The position numbers and the translations under genes were made by a program. The notes under the pieces are model-generated. The model made no database searches and was not told the DNA's origin. It saw only the letters and a list, made by a program, of their open reading frames with translations. 64,000 nucleotides of DNA from Anaerolineales bacterium (GTDB lineage: Bacteria; Chloroflexota; Anaerolineae; Anaerolineales; UBA4823), in NCBI GenBank assembly GCA_025057645.1, contig JANXBJ010000011.1:24028-88027 (forward strand), in the 5' to 3' direction. Every line of letters begins with the position of its first letter. Within the stretch, counting starts at the first letter, position 1. Shown here piece after piece: positions 24,197 to 35,172 of this stretch.

Positions 24197-24282
24197 TGGG
24201 GCGGGTGGGAGTCGAACCCACAAGGAGTGTCACCTCCGGAGGATTTTAAGTCCCCTGCGTCTGCCAATTCCGCCACCGCCCC
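24197..24282 (-). tRNA. tRNA-Leu (anticodon UAA), long variable arm
   Basis: The reverse complement reads GGGGCGG-TG-GCGGAATTGGCAGACGC...GGGGA-CTTAAAA-TCCTC...GTGGGTTCGACTCCCAC-CCGCCCC-A. It has a 7-bp acceptor stem, a T-loop TTCGA and a class II variable arm. CCA is not encoded. Confidence 0.9.
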
Positions 24283-26022: not shown

Positions 26023-26963
26023 TGCAAGCGGATCTCCCGAGAGCCTTTCGCGTCTCTCGATCGGTGGCAGAAGCTCTGACAGCAGCGCGGCCGCTGGTGG
26101 CTTTGGAAACGACAGTGATCACCCATGGATTACCCTACCCGCAAAATCTTCAATTAGCCTGGGAAATTGAGGAACTCGTGCGGGACGAAGGGTGTACCCC
26201 GGTGACGATTGGTATTCTTGAGGGACAAGTTGTCTGTGGATTGACCAAGGAGGAACTGCACCACTTGGCAACGGCTCAAGAGTTGGCTAAGGTAAGCTTG
26301 CGCGATATCGCTCGATTGGTGGTGCAAAAAGGATGCGGTGGGACTACGGTAGCTGCAACAATGTGGATCGCCGAACGGCTCGGAATTCGGGTTTTCTCGA
26401 CAGGCGGGATCGGCGGTGTTCACCGCTATTCAGAGTCTCTGCGCCACGCCGATGTCTCGGCCGATCTTCAAGCCTTGGCTACAATCCCGGTGATCGTGGT
26501 CTGCTCCGGGGCGAAAGCAATTCTTGATCTCCCTGCTACCTTAGAAGTTCTAGAGACGTATTCGGTGCCCGTGCTCGGTTACCAGACCGAGTGCTTTCCG
26601 GCCTTTTATAGTAGCGGATGCGCCGAGCTCAAGGTGAGCGCGGTGGCTCACTCACCCCGAGAGGTGGTTGAATTTGCGCGCGTTCACTGGGGATTAGGAT
26701 TTCGCAGCGCTGTTCTCGTAGCCGTGCCCCCACCTGAGGCGGACGCGTTGCCTAGGGCGGAAATCGAAGCTCTGATCCAACAAGCAATTCGGGATGCGGA
26801 AGAGAGAGGAATCCACGGTCAGGCCGTCACCCCTTTTCTCTTGCAGCGGCTGAGTGAGTTATCTGGGGGTCAGAGCGTTCGCACGAACATCAGTTTGCTC
26901 AAAAACAACGCGCGAGTTGCTTCTCAGATCGCCTCGGCTCTGGCCGATAACGCTAACCGCTAG
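26022..26963 (+). CDS. psuG: Pseudouridine-5'-phosphate glycosidase
   Basis: 'ALETTVITHGLPYPQN', 'GGTTVAATM', 'FSTGGIGGVHR', 'VVCSGAKAILD'. Confidence 0.88.
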   Translation: MQADLPRAFRVSRSVAEALTAARPLVALETTVITHGLPYPQNLQLAWEIEELVRDEGCTPVTIGILEGQVVCGLTKEELHHLATAQELAKVSLRDIARLVVQKGCGGTTVAATMWIAERLGIRVFSTGGIGGVHRYSESLRHADVSADLQALATIPVIVVCSGAKAILDLPATLEVLETYSVPVLGYQTECFPAFYSSGCAELKVSAVAHSPREVVEFARVHWGLGFRSAVLVAVPPPEADALPRAEIEALIQQAIRDAEERGIHGQAVTPFLLQRLSELSGGQSVRTNISLLKNNARVASQIASALADNANR

Positions 26964-28200
26964 GGGTGGGGGTGCGTGTTAGGGTTGGGTAGGGGGTGAT
27001 GCTCGGAGTAACCGGTGTGCGTGTCAGGGTCGGGTAGGGAGTGATAGTGGGGGTGAGTGGTGTGCGTGTTAGAGTCGGGTAAGGGGTTCTAGTCGAGGTT
27101 GCGGTTGGGCTAACGTAGGGAGTGCGGGTTAGGGTCACTGTAGGGGTTACCGTAACCGTCCAAGTGGGCCGTCTAGTCGATGTGACTGTCGGAGTAAATG
27201 TGGGAACGGGTGTCCGTGTCGGGGTTACCGGTGTGGAAGTAGCGGTTGGATAGGGAGTTCGAGAAGGGGTCACCGTAGGGCTGTATAAGGGTGACGGTGT
27301 GAGGTTCGATTGAGGAGGCGGCGTTTGAGTTCGTGTGGAGGTAGGGGTACGGGTTGACGTGGAAGTTCGAGTGGGAGTTGGAGTCCTCGTTGAGGTCGGG
27401 GTTTGGGTAAAAGTGGATGTTGATGTCGGTGTCGGTGGTTCTCCAATAACGCGGAAGCGTCCTGATCGTTTCCACACAGTACCGACATACAACTGAACCT
27501 CGTATTCACCGGGCAACCACTTGGAGGGGTCGGGATTCCAATCGGTGTATCCGTAACCTCCGGTTCCGCCGTCCCAGACTTTCGTTTCAAAATGAACCAG
27601 CTCGCCATCTCTATACCAGAGTGCCGTCCATTGGGATCCATCGACCATCTGATCGTAACTGAAGAGGCCATACAGATGTCCGACTGGATTGCGGAACTCT
27701 TCGCCCGGCGCGAGTGGTTGATAATTCTCCCCGATGCCTTGGGTGAAGATAATTGGGCTGAATTTCGCCTCCGGATTCGGGGTGACGGTGGCCTCAAAGC
27801 GGGCTTCGATGGCAAGAGGAATATACGGAGTGGGAGTGATCGTGGGAGTGTCGGTGACTTCTGGGGTAGGGGTGATCGTTGGGGAGAGCGTGAGAGTGGG
27901 GGTGAGAGTAATGGTCGGCGTAAGGGTAATGGTTGGGCTTAGAGTCGGGGTTGGCGAAGGGGGAAAAACGGAATAAATTAGCGGCTCGGCGCGAGCATTA
28001 ACGATCAGAGCAAGAATGAAAACCACAAAGGCAGCACCGAGCAATCGCCACCCTTGCAGGTTGCGATTGCGACGCAGGCGGAAGAAGGGCAACTTCCGGG
28101 CGGAGCGGATCGAGCGGATGCCCTGCCAGATCATCAAGGCGGCTGAGAGCAACAAGAGAAGAAAAGCAACTCGGACAGCGGTGTGGATGTCCAGAGTCAT
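26953..28200 (-). CDS. Membrane-anchored protein with two Pro/Thr-rich low-complexity regions flanking a globular domain
   Basis: N-terminal TM 'VAFLLLLLSAALMIW' and a second TM segment. It contains 'TPTLSPTITLTPTITLTPT...' and a C-terminal run of 'ITPYPTLTRTPxTPx' repeats. Confidence 0.6.
   Translation of the reverse strand: MTLDIHTAVRVAFLLLLLSAALMIWQGIRSIRSARKLPFFRLRRNRNLQGWRLLGAAFVVFILALIVNARAEPLIYSVFPPSPTPTLSPTITLTPTITLTPTLTLSPTITPTPEVTDTPTITPTPYIPLAIEARFEATVTPNPEAKFSPIIFTQGIGENYQPLAPGEEFRNPVGHLYGLFSYDQMVDGSQWTALWYRDGELVHFETKVWDGGTGGYGYTDWNPDPSKWLPGEYEVQLYVGTVWKRSGRFRVIGEPPTPTSTSTFTQTPTSTRTPTPTRTSTSTRTPTSTRTQTPPPQSNLTPSPLYSPTVTPSRTPYPTATSTPVTPTRTPVPTFTPTVTSTRRPTWTVTVTPTVTLTRTPYVSPTATSTRTPYPTLTRTPLTPTITPYPTLTRTPVTPSITPYPTLTRTPTPSG
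26968..27102. repeat. Three imperfect ~45-nt tandem repeats inside the PT-rich gene
   Basis: ggtg(t)gcgtgtYagRgtYgggtaRggg... recurs at about 26971, 27014 and 27059. On the minus strand it encodes the 15-aa 'ITPYPTLTRTPxTPx' unit. Confidence 0.6.
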
Positions 28201-29009: not shown

Positions 29010-29846
29010 TTATTTGACAGGTTGTTGGATGCGGTTTGAAATTTCAAGAATGGCCTGTTCGGTGCCAGCAAACCGATCGGCATACCGTCGGCGCAGCAGC
29101 TTAGCCAAGGTGTAGATGATCGCTTCTAACGAGACAATCCCCACTCCCACGGAAGGGTGAGAAGCGGCTGCGATGACAATGTCGGCACATTGGGTTGAAG
29201 TGAGAGAAGCTGCCCCAACGATGGCAGCAGTTGGAATACCCCGTGAGCGCGCTTCGCACAGCGCAGAAGCAATGTAAGGGGTTTGTCCGGTGATTTCTAC
29301 AGCGAGGATCAAATCATGATGGGTGGCGTTGTTGAGGGCTCGTGCTAGATCAACCACTCCTGCGCGAGCGATGTAGACAGGAAAACCTCCTTGTTCGAGG
29401 TATTGAACTAGGCTGTAAGCGTTTGGTTGTGCGGGGCCTTCGGCGAAAATAACCGTGCGCCGGACATGGCCGAGCAGTTCCACTAATCTGGAGAGGGCTT
29501 CCGTGTTGAGGGAGATCTTCGTGTGTTCAATAGCCTCTGCGATCTCTTGCATCGCAGATTGAGCAATGCCGGCCACACTGTTTGGCTCTAGAGCCTCGCG
29601 GGGACGGAGCAGCAAGTCATTGCGCACTTTTTGACGAATTTCCTGCTGTAGCTCCGGAAAGCCATGATAACCGAGAAACTGGGAAAAACGAACCACCGTG
29701 GCTGCATCTAGATTCAGGGTGTGGGCGAGTTCGCTGGCGGTCATAAAAGAGGCTTCGATGTAGGAATCCAGAAGATAATCAGCCAATCGAGAGAAGCTTT
29801 TCGACATTTTCGGCTTGGCAGCCCGAATTCTCTCCTCGTAATTCAT
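29010..29846 (-). CDS. MurR/RpiR family transcriptional regulator (HTH + SIS domain)
   Basis: 'LADYLL...MTASELAHTLNLDAATVVRFSQFLGYHGF' HTH followed by a SIS domain. The ATG at 29846 has GAGGAG 6 nt upstream. Confidence 0.8.
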   Translation of the reverse strand: MNYEERIRAAKPKMSKSFSRLADYLLDSYIEASFMTASELAHTLNLDAATVVRFSQFLGYHGFPELQQEIRQKVRNDLLLRPREALEPNSVAGIAQSAMQEIAEAIEHTKISLNTEALSRLVELLGHVRRTVIFAEGPAQPNAYSLVQYLEQGGFPVYIARAGVVDLARALNNATHHDLILAVEITGQTPYIASALCEARSRGIPTAAIVGAASLTSTQCADIVIAAASHPSVGVGIVSLEAIIYTLAKLLRRRYADRFAGTEQAILEISNRIQQPVK

Positions 29847-30019
29847 ATACGCTCCTCGTGAAACCACCTAAAGCTGGATTCTCAATAAATATTACCACAT
29901 TTGCTTCAAAAATGCAAACTTTTCTGAAAGACGGGGTGATTCCTCAATCTGAATCGTGAGGAAAAGTTCCCAAAGTTCCCCTTGCAGTGAGGAATTTAGG
30001 GTATAATCGGAATGTGAAT

Positions 30020-30093
30020 GGGCGGATAGCTCAGTTGGTTAGAGCGCCTCTCTTACACAGAGGAGGTCGGGGGTTCGAGTCCCTTTCCGCCCA
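30020..30093 (+). tRNA. tRNA-Val (anticodon UAC)
   Basis: GGGCGGA-TA-GCTCAGTTGGTTAGAGC-G-CCTCT-CTTACAC-AGAGG-...-TTCGAGT-...-TCCGCCC-A cloverleaf. CCA is not encoded. Confidence 0.9.
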
Positions 30094-30100
30094 TCGGTCG

Positions 30101-30138
30101 CATCCTATGAAGTTCGTCCTTCATAGGATGATTTTCTT
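30101..30138 (+). terminator. Rho-independent terminator after tRNA-Val
   Basis: Perfect 12-bp stem catcctatgaag / cttcataggatg with loop ttcgtc, followed by attttctt. Confidence 0.75.
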
Positions 30139-30680
30139 AACTTGACCGGAGTGTTTTGGAGGAATAGAATTGAAGCGGAAAGGACCGGGAGGCAAGGATG
30201 TCTCTGCCAGTGAAATCGGAGAGAACAAGCTTGGCCTTGCAATTCTTCGTGATCTCTGCACCTAGTGGCGGCAGAATTTTACTCATTTCTCTGCCGGGGG
30301 GTTGAGTTTGAAATCGAAGGAATGTCAATCGGCTATCCCTCAACAAGGCGGTGCTTTGGCTATGTCGAGCACCTGTACTTGGTTGAGCGCATCCAAAACC
30401 AAGCTCGTTGACGTTTCTATAGCTTGCCAGAGAACGATGGGCTTCCCCGGAGGCGCAACCTTTGTTCTAACTGCCGAGAAGCTGACCCAGACCGAGAAGT
30501 TGTTCCTTGATGGAACGATATGGAAACAACAGATTGTCAAGTCCTTGAAGGACAAAGTTTTGTGTGGGGGAATAATTCTGTAAGCCGAGGAGCGAGGTGT
30601 CCCGCTCTGCGGCAAGCCTCATCAAGCTCTGCCTGCTATTACACCAGATTGCCAAATCCTATATTACCAAGGAGCCTGCA

Positions 30681-33600
30681 ATGAGTGATTTTCTATTTCG
30701 AGGTTCAATCCACGACTTTGACCGGGACCTCAAGGAACTTATAGACCTAGAAACCGAGCGGCAAGCGCGCAAATTGATCTTGATTCCTAGCGAGAGTATT
30801 GCGCCTCTGGCTGTGCGCGAGATTCTTAGTTGCGCGTTTCAAAATATCTACGCCGAAGGATACCCTCCGGAGGAAAGCCGCCGATACCTCGAGCGTGAGA
30901 TTTTGGATTACGATTTTCAACTCTCCTACTATCGACGTTTCTCCGACCAGCGCTATTACAAGGGGGTGGAGTATGCAAACTTGGTGGAAATGCTGGCCCG
31001 ACGGCGTTGTGCTGAGTTGTTCGCCAATGAGAAAGTGAGTGCCGATGAGCTCTTTGTCAACGTTCAAGCGCTCTCGGGCGCACCGGCGAACAACGCCGTT
31101 TTTCATGCCTTGTTGAACCCGGGCGATCCGATTTTGGGAATGAGCCTGCTCCATGGCGGGCATCTGACGCATGGATCATCTGTGAATCGGTCTGGGAAGT
31201 ATTACCAGGCGCACCATTACACGGTCGATCCCGAAACAGAACAGATCGACTATGAAAAAATCCAGGAACTGGCTGAACAAGTGCGTCCGAAGATCATTAT
31301 AGCAGGGTACTCTTCATACCCCTGGACAGTGGACTGGGAGCGCTTTGCTCAGATCGCTCATTCCGTGGGGGCATTCTTGATGGCCGATATTGCTCATGTA
31401 GCGGGTTTGGTTGCGGCTGGTGTATACCCTTCTCCGGTTGGTTTTGCAGATGTGATCACTTTCACCACCCATAAATCTTTGTGCGGCCCGCGTGGGGCTT
31501 GTATCCTTACTACCGATCCAGCTTTGGCGAAGAAAATCGACCGGGCGGTTTTCCCGGGAGAGCAGGGCGGTCCACATGTGAATACCTTTGCAGCAATGGC
31601 TCTGGCATTTAAGCTTGCCCAGACCGAACAGTTCCGGCAGTTACAAGCCCAAGTGGTCAAAAATTGTGTAGCGTTAACCCAAAGGCTGAAAGAACTTGGC
31701 TGTCGCATCTCGTATGGTGGGACAAACACCCACCTGACTAACGTGGATTGCCGAACCTTTGTCGGGCCGGATGGGACAACCCTTTCCGGCGATCAAGCTG
31801 CTCGTATTTTGGACATCGCCGGCATTGTGGTCAATCGCAATACGATCCCGGGCGACACATCGGCAGCAGATCCTTCAGGCATCCGCTTGGGCACGCCGTG
31901 GGTAACCCAACGTGGACTCAAAGAAGAGCATATGGGCCGGATCGCCGAGCTAATTGTCGAGGTGCTCAAGGCAACCAAGCCCTATACCTATGCCGTTCGG
32001 GTAGCCAACTTGCGCCGTGCCAAGGTAGATTTCGATACCCTCGAGACCGTCAAGATTCGGGTGCGAGAGCTTGCCGAAAAAGCCAGTGTGTATGAGACGG
32101 TTGGCTGTCATGGGTATCCTCACTATTATTATATAGACGATCCCTATCCGACGTCTGAAGGATGGGCTGTGTTCCTCATCAAGGGGGATAGTGTGCGCCA
32201 GTTCATAAACTATGCTACGGACGTGGATGTCTCGTGGATTCAGCCCGGCGAAGCAACCTCTGTGCACATCTCGGCGCGCCAGAGAACCGGCAAGGGACTG
32301 TTAGCTTGCCGAGCCGAAAGAGAGTTCCTCCTATTCTTGCCTCCCCGGGATGCCGCTTATATCGCAGCTTGGCTGCGTGCTCTTTCGGATGGATATGTCG
32401 AGTTCGAATCCTCAGACGGTGCTTTAGACCGGGTGATGAAAAAGCTGCCCGGACCGGTAATTGTCAAGGACGTCCCAAGCGAACCCCCGCCCGGAATCTT
32501 ACAGCCCAATAGAAGTGCTGAAAAACCTTATTTCATCGGGATTCCTGCCGGGAGCGGTGTGCCGAAGCCGGAGTTCCGCTGGTATCAGTCAGAGTCTCCT
32601 CTGAAGAGAACCCCCCTTTATGACTTGCACCGTCGGTTGGGAGCCAAGTTGATTCCTTTTGCGGGATGGGAAATGCCGGTATGGTATAGTTCAGTGATCG
32701 AGGAGCATCGGGCGACCCGCAGTGCAGCCGGCCTTTTTGATGTTTCTCACATGGGTGTCTATCAGGTCGAAGGTGCAGATGCCGCAGCTTTTCTAGATAG
32801 CGTTTGTGGAAACGATATTGGCGGGCTGGAAGTAGGGGAGTCATGTTATACCCATTTCCTCGACCCGAACGCTAACGTTATTGACGATACTTTGGTTTAC
32901 CGTAGAGCACAGGATGTTTTCCTAGTGGTGGTCAATGCAGCTAACGACGAGAAGGATTGGGCGTGGCTGAATGCCGTTTTAGCAGGGGAAGTCTGCGTGG
33001 ACAGAGATCGGCCCTGGGCTCGTGCTTTTGGGCGGAGAGCGCGCCTGCGCAATCTGCGTGACCCTAAGGAGGGCGAAGATATGCGCGTCGACATTGCCCT
33101 TCAAGGACCAAAGTCACGAGAGATATTGTTGGAATTAGAGGTTGACGCTGAGACCCATAAAAAGATCCTCGCCCTAAAGCGAACCGAATTGTGCGATGCT
33201 CGGATTGGAGGCTTCGATTTGATTGTTTCGCGAACGGGCTATACCGGCGAAAAGATGGGGTTTGAGCTGTTTGTTCATCCCGACCAGGCGGTTGATCTGT
33301 TTTGCGCACTGCTGGAGAAGGGTGAGCGCTATGGGATTAGACCTGTGGGCCTGGGAGCGAGGGATTCCCTTCGGACGGAGGCTGGTCTGCCGCTGTATGG
33401 TCATGAAATGGGGGAAGGCTCTGGCAAACTCGGTCAGCCGGATTTGGGGGTTGCAGAGGCTGGTTTTGGAAGTTATGTCAAACTCCATAAGCCGTGGTTT
33501 ATCGGTCGCCAGGCTTTTGTTGAGCGGGAGAGGACCCGTAAGGGGGTGGTAGTGCGCTTTCAGTTTTTGGAGAAAGGGGTTCGGGTTGCGCACAGCGGTG

Positions 33601-33839
33601 ACCCAGTGCTAGACAAGCGTGGTCGGGTGATCGGCTGGGTTACTAGTTGTGCGATTGATCAGCAAGGTTCGTTGACTGGGCAGGCCTTCGTTGAACTGAA
33701 GAGCGCCGAAGAAGGTACGCGAATCTTGATCTACCAAGGCTCCCCAGATCAATCAATAAAGGCGCCGGCGGCATTGACTCTGGGAGAAAAATCAATCCTA
33801 CCCAGTGAAGCAGTGGTGGTAAGCCGTTTTCCGAAATAA
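30681..33839 (+). CDS. Fusion protein: serine hydroxymethyltransferase-like N-terminal domain, a ~150-aa middle region, and a glycine-cleavage T-protein (aminomethyltransferase) C-terminal domain
   Basis: The N-terminus has '[14 protein letters not shown]', 'AEGYP' and PLP-Lys motif '[13 protein letters not shown]'. The C-terminus has '[27 protein letters not shown]', '[11 protein letters not shown]' and '[20 protein letters not shown]'. The ATG at 30681 has an AAGGAG SD. Confidence 0.85.
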
Positions 33840-33885: not shown

Positions 33886-35172
33886 ATGGTACGACCCATC
33901 GTAAAAGTTACGGGTGCAATTCGAGACGAAAGAGGCTTGCAAACTCCTTGGGATCATCGCTACGCGCATCGCACAAAGCGGATGGGGAGTTCGGCAGTGC
34001 GAGAGTTGCTCAAATTCACCGAACAACCCGATATTATCTCTTTTGCAGGCGGTCTGCCTGCTCCGGAGGTCTTCCCAATTGAAAGGTTTGCCGAGGCTTG
34101 TCAGAAGGTCTTGCGCGACTACGGGGCTCAGGCGCTGCAGTACGGTCCCACGGAAGGCTATTTGCCCTTGAGGGAACAAATCGCACGGCACACCGCACGC
34201 TACGGGATCAACGTAAATCCGGAGAACATTCTGATCACCTCGGGGTCGCAACAAGCCCTGGACCTGATTGGGAAGGTATTTATTAATCGTGGGGATCGCA
34301 TCTTGGTCGAGTCCCCGACATACTTGGGCGCGCTTCAGGCGTGGAATGCCTACGGGGCGGAGTACGTGGCAGTACCATCGGATAAGCAGGGGATGATTAC
34401 CGATGCCCTGGAGGAGGCGCTGAGGTATGGACCGAAGTTCATCTATGTCCTGCCTAATTTCCAAAACCCGACCGGTGTGACTCTCTCCCTCGAGCGTCGT
34501 TACCAGTTAGTTGAGCTTGCAAATCGGTTTGGAGTCCCCATCATTGAGGATGATCCCTATGGACAGTTGCGCTACGAGGGGGAGCACTTGCCTTCTATTG
34601 TAGTGGTAGATGGCCAGTATCGGGGAAACCACGACCGCTGCTATCGGGGAAATGTGATCTACCTTAGCACCTTCTCGAAGATCCTTGCGCCGGGCTTGCG
34701 GCTAGGTTGGGTGGTGGCCCCACCCGAGGTGATTCGGAAGATGGTGGAAGCGAAACAAGGGGAGGATTTACACACGGCTACCTTTAACCAGCTTGTCGCA
34801 CACGAGGTTTCAAAGGGTGGCTTCCTAGACGAGCATGTAAAGGTGATCCGTCAGGTCTATCGCCAGCGTCGCGATGTCATGTTGGCCGCTATGGACCGCT
34901 ATTTTCCTTCGGAAGTGGATTGGACGCACCCGGAGGGGGGCTTGTTCCTGTGGGGAACAATGCCCGAGTACCTTGATGCCAAAGAGGTGTTGAAGGACGC
35001 CCTCGAACAGAAAGTGGCCTTTGTGCCGGGGGAAAGCTTTTACCCGGGCGGGGGAGGACACAACACGATGCGCCTGAATTTTTCGAACGCAACACCTGAA
35101 AAAATCGAAGAAGGCATCTACAGGTTAGGGAATGTAATCCGCGCAAAAATGCAAGAGCTAGCCCCAGCCTAA
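33886..35172 (+). CDS. PLP-dependent aminotransferase, class I/II (2-aminoadipate/aromatic aminotransferase-like)
   Basis: 'SFAGGLPAPEVFP', 'NFQNPTG', 'YLSTFSKILAPGLRLGW' (PLP Lys). GGAGGAGG SD upstream. Confidence 0.8.
   Translation: MVRPIVKVTGAIRDERGLQTPWDHRYAHRTKRMGSSAVRELLKFTEQPDIISFAGGLPAPEVFPIERFAEACQKVLRDYGAQALQYGPTEGYLPLREQIARHTARYGINVNPENILITSGSQQALDLIGKVFINRGDRILVESPTYLGALQAWNAYGAEYVAVPSDKQGMITDALEEALRYGPKFIYVLPNFQNPTGVTLSLERRYQLVELANRFGVPIIEDDPYGQLRYEGEHLPSIVVVDGQYRGNHDRCYRGNVIYLSTFSKILAPGLRLGWVVAPPEVIRKMVEAKQGEDLHTATFNQLVAHEVSKGGFLDEHVKVIRQVYRQRRDVMLAAMDRYFPSEVDWTHPEGGLFLWGTMPEYLDAKEVLKDALEQKVAFVPGESFYPGGGGHNTMRLNFSNATPEKIEEGIYRLGNVIRAKMQELAPA

Follow-up and report, generated by a model that had tools for sequence, protein, structure and literature searches.

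Amino acids are connected to the folate one-carbon (C1) pool through two main gateways, serine hydroxymethyltransferase (SHMT, GlyA) and the glycine cleavage system. The same pair provides the final two steps of the reductive glycine pathway, a route that is being engineered for growth on formate and CO2. In a 64,000-nucleotide stretch of the genome of an Anaerolineales bacterium (contig JANXBJ010000011.1; hereafter the window), one gene on the forward strand (30681..33839) encodes domains resembling both SHMT and GcvT, the aminomethyltransferase or T-protein of the glycine cleavage system. The locus raises the question of whether a single polypeptide serves both gateways, and what the segment is that joins its two enzymes. 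We consider it likely that the gene encodes a bifunctional enzyme, which acts as the housekeeping SHMT and as the T-protein of the glycine cleavage system.

Translation of the gene yields one stop-free frame of 1052 codons plus the stop codon, in which domain searches place an SHMT domain, a degenerate GcvT copy (pseudo-GcvT) and a GcvT domain, in this order. The ATG is preceded by the Shine-Dalgarno sequence AGGAG (30670-30674), spaced 6 nt from it, and both elements are kept in the three closest relatives. In Pfam, the GCV_T family covers aa 646-913 (E 3e-78) and the SHMT family covers aa 83-425 (E 8e-123), the latter with an additional short match near the N-terminus. An earlier note, made from the sequence without database searches, had described one uninterrupted 1052-aa frame with an SHMT-like and a GcvT-like enzyme; the frame and both identities hold, the latter by Pfam and NCBIfam scores and by retained catalytic motifs, and two of the three Pfam families it proposed to look for, PF00464 and PF01571, were found.

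The fusion is not confined to one assembly. In a protein search covering 5.8 billion proteins, 120 homologues were present among the matches listed, nearly all of them 1038-1082 aa (about 1040-1080) in length. The listed homologues share 64-84% identity at 100% query coverage. They are drawn from separate, independent assemblies (NCBI, JGI, ENA and Logan), and most bear the label Anaerolineae, Anaerolineales or Chloroflexota. When species genomes were scanned, at least 570 stretches proved to encode a relative, and the full-length frame is present at 80 named genome loci. The phylum was also sampled evenly (401 genomes, 218 genera; fusion-type call at E <= 1e-150), and this phyletic survey, which the earlier note had suggested, revealed a fusion typical of Anaerolineae: a fusion-type protein occurs in 77 of the 401 genomes and in 34 of the 218 genera, and 32 of the 34 other sampled genomes of the window's own order possess it. 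Named hosts include the cultured Bellilinea caldifistulae GOMI-1, Anaerolinea thermophila, Longilinea, Leptolinea and Ca. Desulfolinea nitratireducens, and outlying members carry a Planctomycetales label (MCI0339843.1, 1187 aa) and a Kiritimatiellia label (MBN1673259.1, 1027 aa). Existing annotation names the fusion proteins by one half only, "SHMT" or "GcvT", and pathway reconstructions of Anaerolineae will therefore wrongly report the other function as missing.

The SHMT (GlyA) catalytic domain comprises aa 1-430 (30681..31970, forward strand), as delimited by PF00464, NF000586 and Foldseek. It reaches 410.4 bits with PF00464 (cut-off 27) and 438.5 bits with the SHMT profile NF000586 (cut-off 335). 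The Schiff-base lysine for pyridoxal 5'-phosphate (PLP), K265 (nt 31473-31475), is located inside a 13-residue motif at aa 260-272 (nt 31458-31496), where the earlier note had placed it. Statements on residue invariance refer to an alignment of 70 homologues, in which K265, H264, D236, H239, R271, the F291-P298 block and R402 are invariant in 70/70; the roles of D236, H239, H264, K265, R271 and R402 are presumably those known from the SHMTs of E. coli and B. stearothermophilus. In Foldseek alignments, the SHMT half is ~40-43% identical overall to solved SHMTs, with higher identity over the phmmer-matched core (aa 83-432). The top 50 Foldseek matches of the model are all SHMTs, with TM values of 0.93-0.95 for solved SHMTs overall (9J4H_C: TMt 0.95, rmsd 2.2, E 4e-39). 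The N-terminal part thus has the fold of a fold-type I PLP enzyme, and both the fold matches and the SHMT cut-off identify it as SHMT and not as another enzyme of this fold type.

Two additions distinguish this half. A clade-specific insertion of ~29 aa (aa 62-90; 30864..30950, forward strand) is located in the N-terminal loop between AEGYP and RYYKG, where it splits the Pfam and NCBIfam SHMT matches in two; in the model it forms three short helices (64-68, 71-74 and 77-87), and the split match is a signature common to all fusion-type genomes. The catalytic domain is followed by an extension at aa 431-475 (31971..32105, forward strand), modelled as a beta-hairpin and a long helix (strands 432-438 and 443-450, helix 451-467). 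Residues R445, R446, D450 and F451 of this extension are nearly invariant, and the alignment with the long-SHMT model NF010094 reaches aa 474. Judged by its profile scores and conserved residues, the SHMT half looks competent for serine/glycine interconversion.

The GcvT domain (aa 641-1052; 32601..33836, forward strand) was delimited by PF01571, TIGR00528 and phmmer. It opens with a 16-residue stretch beginning at aa 641 (nt 32601), in agreement with the start given earlier. The gcvT equivalog model TIGR00528 scores 262.5 bits (cut-off 235.85) and spans aa 641-1016, corresponding to model positions 1-342 of 362, and phmmer matches the GcvT proteins of B. subtilis (1YX2, E 1.7e-64) and T. maritima (1WOO, E 2e-55). 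The catalytic Asp pair D735-D736 (nt 32883-32888), V750-A753 (VVNA), T852-E857 (TGYTGE), R894 and S896-G907 are invariant in the 70 homologues, and the DD, VVNA, GYTGE and ARDxLRxEAG motifs align with those of 1YX2 and 1WOO. Across both halves, the invariant motifs comprise THK, the DD pair, VVNA, GYTGE and a 15-residue motif. A clade-specific insertion of ~27 aa is present in the GcvT domain at aa ~776-802. This half looks like a competent T-protein, for which H-protein-dependent aminomethyl transfer is predicted. No conserved Met precedes the T domain in the 70 homologues, and a separately translated T-protein product is therefore unlikely.

Further support comes from the remaining one-carbon genes. 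In the window's own assembly (3.1 Mb, 63 contigs, 95.8% complete), PF00464 matches are found inside the fusion gene only, and GCV_T/PF01571 matches are limited to the fusion and two FAD-oxidase-GcvT proteins; when canonical glyA and gcvT genes were sought elsewhere in the genome, as the earlier note had advised, no second SHMT was found, and no stand-alone gcvT was found among the GCV_T matches. The two FAD-oxidase-GcvT proteins look like enzymes of the dimethylglycine/sarcosine dehydrogenase type; one has 825 aa (contig C60, L010 4892-7369, reverse strand) and the other 808 aa (contig C9, L011 4585-7011, forward strand). One is accompanied by genes for ETF alpha/beta and the other by a Rieske oxygenase and an MttB-like methyltransferase. 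These paralogues were considered as the real T-protein and rejected: with 197.6 and 177.4 bits they remain below the TIGR00528 cut-off of 235.85, and their contexts are catabolic.

The glycine cleavage genes themselves form a gcvH-gcvPA-gcvPB operon without gcvT on contig C11 of the same assembly, which agrees with the earlier observation that gcvH and gcvP are not adjacent to the fusion. Adjacent gcvH-PA-PB genes were found in 14/14 relatives tested, with no GCV_T match beside them in the relatives covered by the GCV_T scan. The fusion and the operon are on different contigs in the window's own genome, and 4-6 kb apart on the same contig in two relatives (G411, contig C49; G415, contig C20). 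The fusion is the only GCV_T-domain gene in four relatives (G411, G418, G419 and G071, the last a single contig that is 99% complete). In addition, the fusion-type genomes, including a complete one-contig genome, display the split SHMT signature only and no second SHMT. Since there is no other SHMT, the gcvH-PA-PB operons are T-less and the fusion is the only GCV_T gene in four relatives, the fusion must, as judged from gene content, supply both SHMT and T-protein functions in these organisms.

In the proposed mechanism, GcvPA/PB, encoded by the separate T-less operon, would load GcvH, and the aminomethyl group carried by the lipoyl arm of GcvH would be transferred by the C-terminal GcvT domain to tetrahydrofolate (THF), with 5,10-methylene-THF and ammonia as products. 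Methylene-THF and a second glycine would then be converted to serine by the N-terminal SHMT domain. Both steps would be reversible, the single polypeptide would set a 1:1 stoichiometry of the two sites, and the recycling of THF and methylene-THF would probably be local between them. The earlier note had proposed a coupling via 5,10-methylene-THF, with channelling of the C1 unit; the coupling stands as the natural reading of two competent-looking domains, and the channelling is plausible. The surroundings of the two oxidase-GcvT genes suggest a catabolic route from glycine betaine via dimethylglycine and sarcosine to glycine, which would feed glycine and methylene-THF to the fusion. Fhs and FolD are also present in the genome, so that all folate steps and most cleavage-system genes of the reductive glycine route are encoded, and a reductive direction is compatible with this gene set. 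Fhs and FolD are common, however, and therefore carry no information on the direction of flux.

Several points weigh against the bifunctional reading. Proximity by itself gives no channelling of a freely diffusing cofactor. The gcvT model NF001567 scores 294.8, just below its cut-off of 300, and NF010093 remains at 220 with a cut-off of 459. PF08669, the C-terminal barrel that the earlier note had also listed, is not called by Pfam in the fusion protein; its matches are marginal in related fusions, and the model places strands at 955-1049 in the barrel region. The N-terminal region of the E. coli T-protein reportedly matters for H-protein binding, according to Okamura-Ikeda's work, and the N-terminus of the T domain in the fusion is not free. 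Some relatives also have a GCV_T paralogue of ~400-445 aa, and the fusion is not the sole possible T-protein everywhere. Finally, the structure model is that of a monomer, and SHMT works as a dimer.

The segment between the two enzymes had been described in the earlier note as a linker of unclear identity. It is a module of its own (aa 476-640; 32106..32600, forward strand; a 10-residue stretch begins at aa 478), and profile comparison, structural search and longer relatives identify it as a degenerate GcvT sub-domain. Its core (aa 497-578; nt 32169-32414) is homologous to GcvT residues about 50-140. When the linker columns were compared with the fusion's own GcvT columns by hhalign, aa 497-578 aligned to aa 693-776 with a probability of 94.8% (E 5e-8); in this alignment, the catalytic VIDD stands opposite a gap and KG, and VVNA stands opposite FLPP. 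The catalytic motifs are gone, and only ~80-100 residues of the GcvT fold are left. A linker profile of 29 sequences matched 1YX2 in the Protein Data Bank (PDB) with E 1.4e-6 (residues 55-144), and of the seven other PDB matches listed (E up to 10), five are likewise GcvTs that align at these positions. The AlphaFold2 model of aa 431-645 has a pLDDT of 72, with a core above 85, and the structure search on the linker that had been proposed earlier returned GcvT-fold proteins for all of the top 44 Foldseek matches (among them GcvT, DMGDH, DMGO, SoxA, LigM, YgfZ, DmdA and Iba57). In the full-length model, secondary structure elements follow one another at aa 495-570 in the same order as at aa 692-767. 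In all fusion representatives examined, the HMM of the active domain has a second, weaker match within the linker, over HMM positions ~45-140. Phmmer with the single linker sequence gave nothing meaningful against the PDB, where GcvT emerged only from the profile and fold searches, and phmmer of the linker against 1.84 billion representative proteins gave 90 matches, all of them fusions or fragments, with no independent family.

Relatives of other lengths indicate how the module arose. Longer relatives (1134-1256 aa) retain a fuller first GcvT copy; in P0176 (1250 aa) it covers HMM positions 5-310 (E 3e-25), and the first copy of a 1216-aa protein (G338) still has TNDV and VMDDVFVMR. A tree of the SHMT part groups all appended forms in a single clade (SH-aLRT 100) and separates them from the canonical ~430-aa SHMTs of other Chloroflexota. 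Short proteins that consist of SHMT and the remnant (586-656 aa) arise twice in this clade, in G116/G346 and in G227/G251/G291. In the G116/G346 family, which belongs to the same class, the protein ends right after the pseudo-GcvT (586-612 aa), and the same GcvT type exists as a separate gene with an open frame of about 420-430 aa. This gene is on a separate contig in G116 (L012, G116:C6), and in G346 it directly follows SHMT and remnant, overlapping in a different frame (L101, G346:C25:1-4200), which indicates a recent fission or an uncorrected frameshift. These sequences can be ordered into a decay series, leading from a nearly full tandem GcvT copy to a remnant of ~100 residues and on to a remnant that stayed on SHMT after loss of the T domain. 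As the short forms arise twice inside the clade of appended forms, the fusion is ancestral, and the T domain has been split off or lost at least twice, each time leaving the remnant on SHMT. Taken together, the comparisons and models identify the middle module as a predicted catalytically dead remnant of a tandem GcvT duplicate.

That the remnant stayed on SHMT after each loss of the T domain argues for a function linked to SHMT, whether structural or of another kind. A structural adaptor is its most likely role, and a function as a ligand-binding or partner-docking site is less certain. A stronger version of the latter would make the pseudo-GcvT a functional novelty, a regulatory or binding domain with a second folate site, a site for the polyglutamate tail or a dock for GcvH, while both halves are active. 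The module has invariant motifs of its own, which would suit such a function: YPH (479-481), WLRxLSDG (564-571; W564, R566 and S569-G571 invariant), KPY (615-617; K615 invariant, P616 and Y617 nearly so) and FxW (632-634; F632 and W634 nearly invariant). It was also kept in two lineages after independent loss of the T domain, and the GcvT segment from which it descends lines the folate cavity, the location of which we take from T-protein structures. However, the catalytic and folate-contacting motifs of GcvT (DD, VVNA) are gone from it, and it evolves faster than both enzymes, with a mean column identity of about 0.55-0.75 compared with 0.8-0.95. We regard this version as unlikely, though worth keeping in mind.

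It is tempting to speculate further about the geometry of the protein. The full-length AlphaFold2 model of the fusion has a mean pLDDT of 83.5 and a pTM of 0.82, and aa 590-640 are ordered in the full-length model only and not in the isolated linker model; the high pTM and this context-dependent ordering suggest a fixed inter-domain architecture. When the whole model was compared with the PDB by Foldseek, only SHMTs and no fused architecture were among the matches. In the most far-reaching scenario, the fusion has replaced glyA and gcvT across Anaerolineae, in some other Chloroflexota and in the metagenome-derived Planctomycetales/Kiritimatiellia outliers, and acts as a glycine-serine machine of fixed geometry, in which an SHMT dimer core carries two T-protein modules. 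The dead GcvT and the SHMT insertion would serve as a cradle or conduit that keeps one (polyglutamyl)folate shuttling, or would dock GcvH, and methylene-THF would never equilibrate with the bulk. We consider this scenario doubtful as a whole; if true, it would represent a natural, evolved case of C1 channelling in the core of the glycine cleavage and reductive glycine route.

The bifunctional reading has further competitors, which question one half each. The C-terminal domain might not be an H-dependent T-protein, but an internal folate module, for instance one that serves the adjoining catalytic domain by trapping formaldehyde from side reactions of SHMT, or it might use another aminomethyl or methyl donor. 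The characterised natural GcvT-fold fusions are indeed H-protein-independent (DMGO 1PJ5, DMGDH 4PAB, SoxA 2GAG and Tdm 9Q59), which also counts against the bifunctional enzyme, and all four are among the sequence or fold matches of the fusion; the buried N-terminus of the T domain and the marginal NF001567 score fit this alternative as well. On the other hand, SHMT binds THF itself and needs no helper, and the domain scores as a gcvT equivalog, which the oxidase-linked GcvT domains of the genome do not. The T-less gcvH-PA-PB genes are universal in the relatives tested and four genomes are without another GCV_T gene, so that their cleavage systems would otherwise be useless; moreover, G116 and G346 encode the same GcvT type as a separate gene. 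An H-independent C-terminal domain is thus improbable.

Even less can be said for an SHMT half of changed specificity, such as a threonine or beta-hydroxy-amino-acid aldolase, an alpha-methylserine transferase or a folate-independent enzyme. The earlier note had taken HKSL in place of the canonical HKTL as a hint at a different substrate, and this Ser for Thr after the PLP lysine, the 29-aa insertion beside the loop with the active-site tyrosines, and a weak match to the fluorothreonine transaldolase model TIGR04506 (100.7 bits, cut-off 650) can be cited in its favour. More distant members of the fusion family have HKTL, however, and the half passes the SHMT subfamily cut-off, keeps the folate- and substrate-binding motifs invariant and superimposes on solved SHMTs with a TM of 0.95. 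Moreover, no other SHMT homologue is present in this 96%-complete genome or in the fusion-bearing relatives, so that this half must supply glycine and C1 units. The hint is not borne out, and a changed specificity is very improbable. That the fusion is an artefact, caused by a sequencing frameshift, by loss of a stop codon or by chimeric joining of adjacent glyA and gcvT genes in the assembly, has next to no chance: the source is a 63-contig draft and split versions exist, as in G346, but the same 1040-1130-aa frame recurs in over 100 independent assemblies, among them complete chromosomes and that of a cultured isolate, and what separates the two enzymes is a conserved module of ~165 aa and not an intergenic spacer.

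The surroundings of the gene in the window are as follows. A class I aminotransferase of the PH0207/LysN/multiple-substrate type (33886..35172, forward strand) begins 46 nt downstream of the fusion. Its best relatives in the PDB are 1X0M, 3AOV (PH0207), 1WST and 2EGY (LysN), with 2ZC0, an alanine:glyoxylate transaminase, more distant; the Thermococcus multiple-substrate aminotransferase is also among its closest relatives. In 55 of 80 related loci, an orthologue immediately follows the fusion, and the aminotransferase is probably co-transcribed with the fusion as an operon partner; transamination linked to glyoxylate or serine is a conceivable activity. Upstream, a regulator of the RpiR/MurR family (29010-29867, reverse strand) is divergently transcribed, and a tRNA gene (30020-30093, forward strand) lies between it and a frameshifted pseudogene of the MmpS family of small membrane proteins (PF05423; 30198-30583, forward strand), which is located in the ~590-nt gap between the tRNA gene and the fusion start. 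In this pseudogene, the N-terminal transmembrane segment is in frame +3, and the C-terminal domain is in frame +2, with a 4-aa deletion and loss of conserved residues; in the closest relative (L016), the corresponding position is occupied by an intact MmpS-family gene (152 aa). The stretch upstream of the fusion was considered as a possible cis-regulatory RNA or non-coding region, and it is explained by the decayed MmpS-family gene. Rfam searches of the whole window at the gathering threshold and of 29800-30750 at E <= 1 detected tRNAs only, including a second tRNA gene at 24197-24282 (reverse strand), and no glycine or THF riboswitch.

Two further observations were made. A 415-aa open reading frame in the window (26953-28200, reverse strand) encodes an N-terminal transmembrane segment and long Thr/Pro-rich repeats (TPTxTLTPT and TRTPxPT), and is probably a low-complexity surface or cell-envelope protein. 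On contig C9 (L011 381-3235), putative CRISPR-associated genes directly precede a DeoR-type regulator and the second of the two oxidase-GcvT genes; two of the products resemble, on inspection by eye, Cas1 (349 aa) and Cas4 (232 aa, with a C-terminal Cys motif), and another Cas-like open reading frame comes before them.

The chemistry proposed for the fusion is known from plant mitochondria, in which glycine decarboxylase and SHMT are coupled as unlinked enzymes: the net reaction is the same, two glycine giving serine, CO2 and NH3, and both enzymes share a methylene-THF pool. The fusion of consecutive folate enzymes is likewise recurrent, as in DHFR-TS, FolD and C1-THF synthase. The SHMT-GcvT fusion offers an experimental handle on the transfer of methylene-THF between SHMT and T-protein, as proposed for plant mitochondria, and a ready-made part for synthetic C1 assimilation; its decay series could serve as a clear case of a dead enzyme copy that is kept as a structural module. 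The literature was searched for a natural covalent SHMT-T-protein fusion, and no description was found.

Compared with stand-alone GlyA (EC 2.1.2.1; E. coli 1DFO, E. faecium 9J4H/7V3D, T. thermophilus 2DKJ), the fusion shares the fold-type I PLP domain, the THK motif, the folate and substrate motifs, ~40-43% identity, TM values of 0.93-0.95 and the role of sole SHMT; it differs in the 29-aa insertion after AEGYP, the 45-aa hairpin-helix extension, ~620 further residues and its own clade. With stand-alone GcvT (EC 2.1.2.10; 1YX2, 1WOO, E. coli 1VLO and the T-H complex 3A8I) it has in common the equivalog score, the motifs and the partners gcvH/gcvPA/gcvPB, whereas it is encoded outside the gcv operon, its T domain has a fused N-terminus and a ~27-aa insertion (aa 776-802), and its putative barrel is apparently too divergent for PF08669. 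The oxidase- and demethylase-GcvT fusions (1PJ5, 4PAB, 2GAG, 9Q59) also carry a C-terminal GcvT fold on an enzyme that makes or uses C1 units and bring C1 to THF within one protein. Their partner domain, however, is an oxidase of the flavin or metal type, from which iminium or formaldehyde is released, and H-protein takes no part; in the Anaerolineae fusion the partner is a folate enzyme, the GcvT domain resembles a true T-protein and an extra, dead GcvT copy is present. Each half is an ordinary member of the GlyA or GcvT family, and the sequences have been public for years under the name of one half; what appears to be new, by the literature searched, is their combination, a covalent SHMT-T-protein with an internal pseudo-GcvT that replaces both stand-alone genes in a bacterial class.

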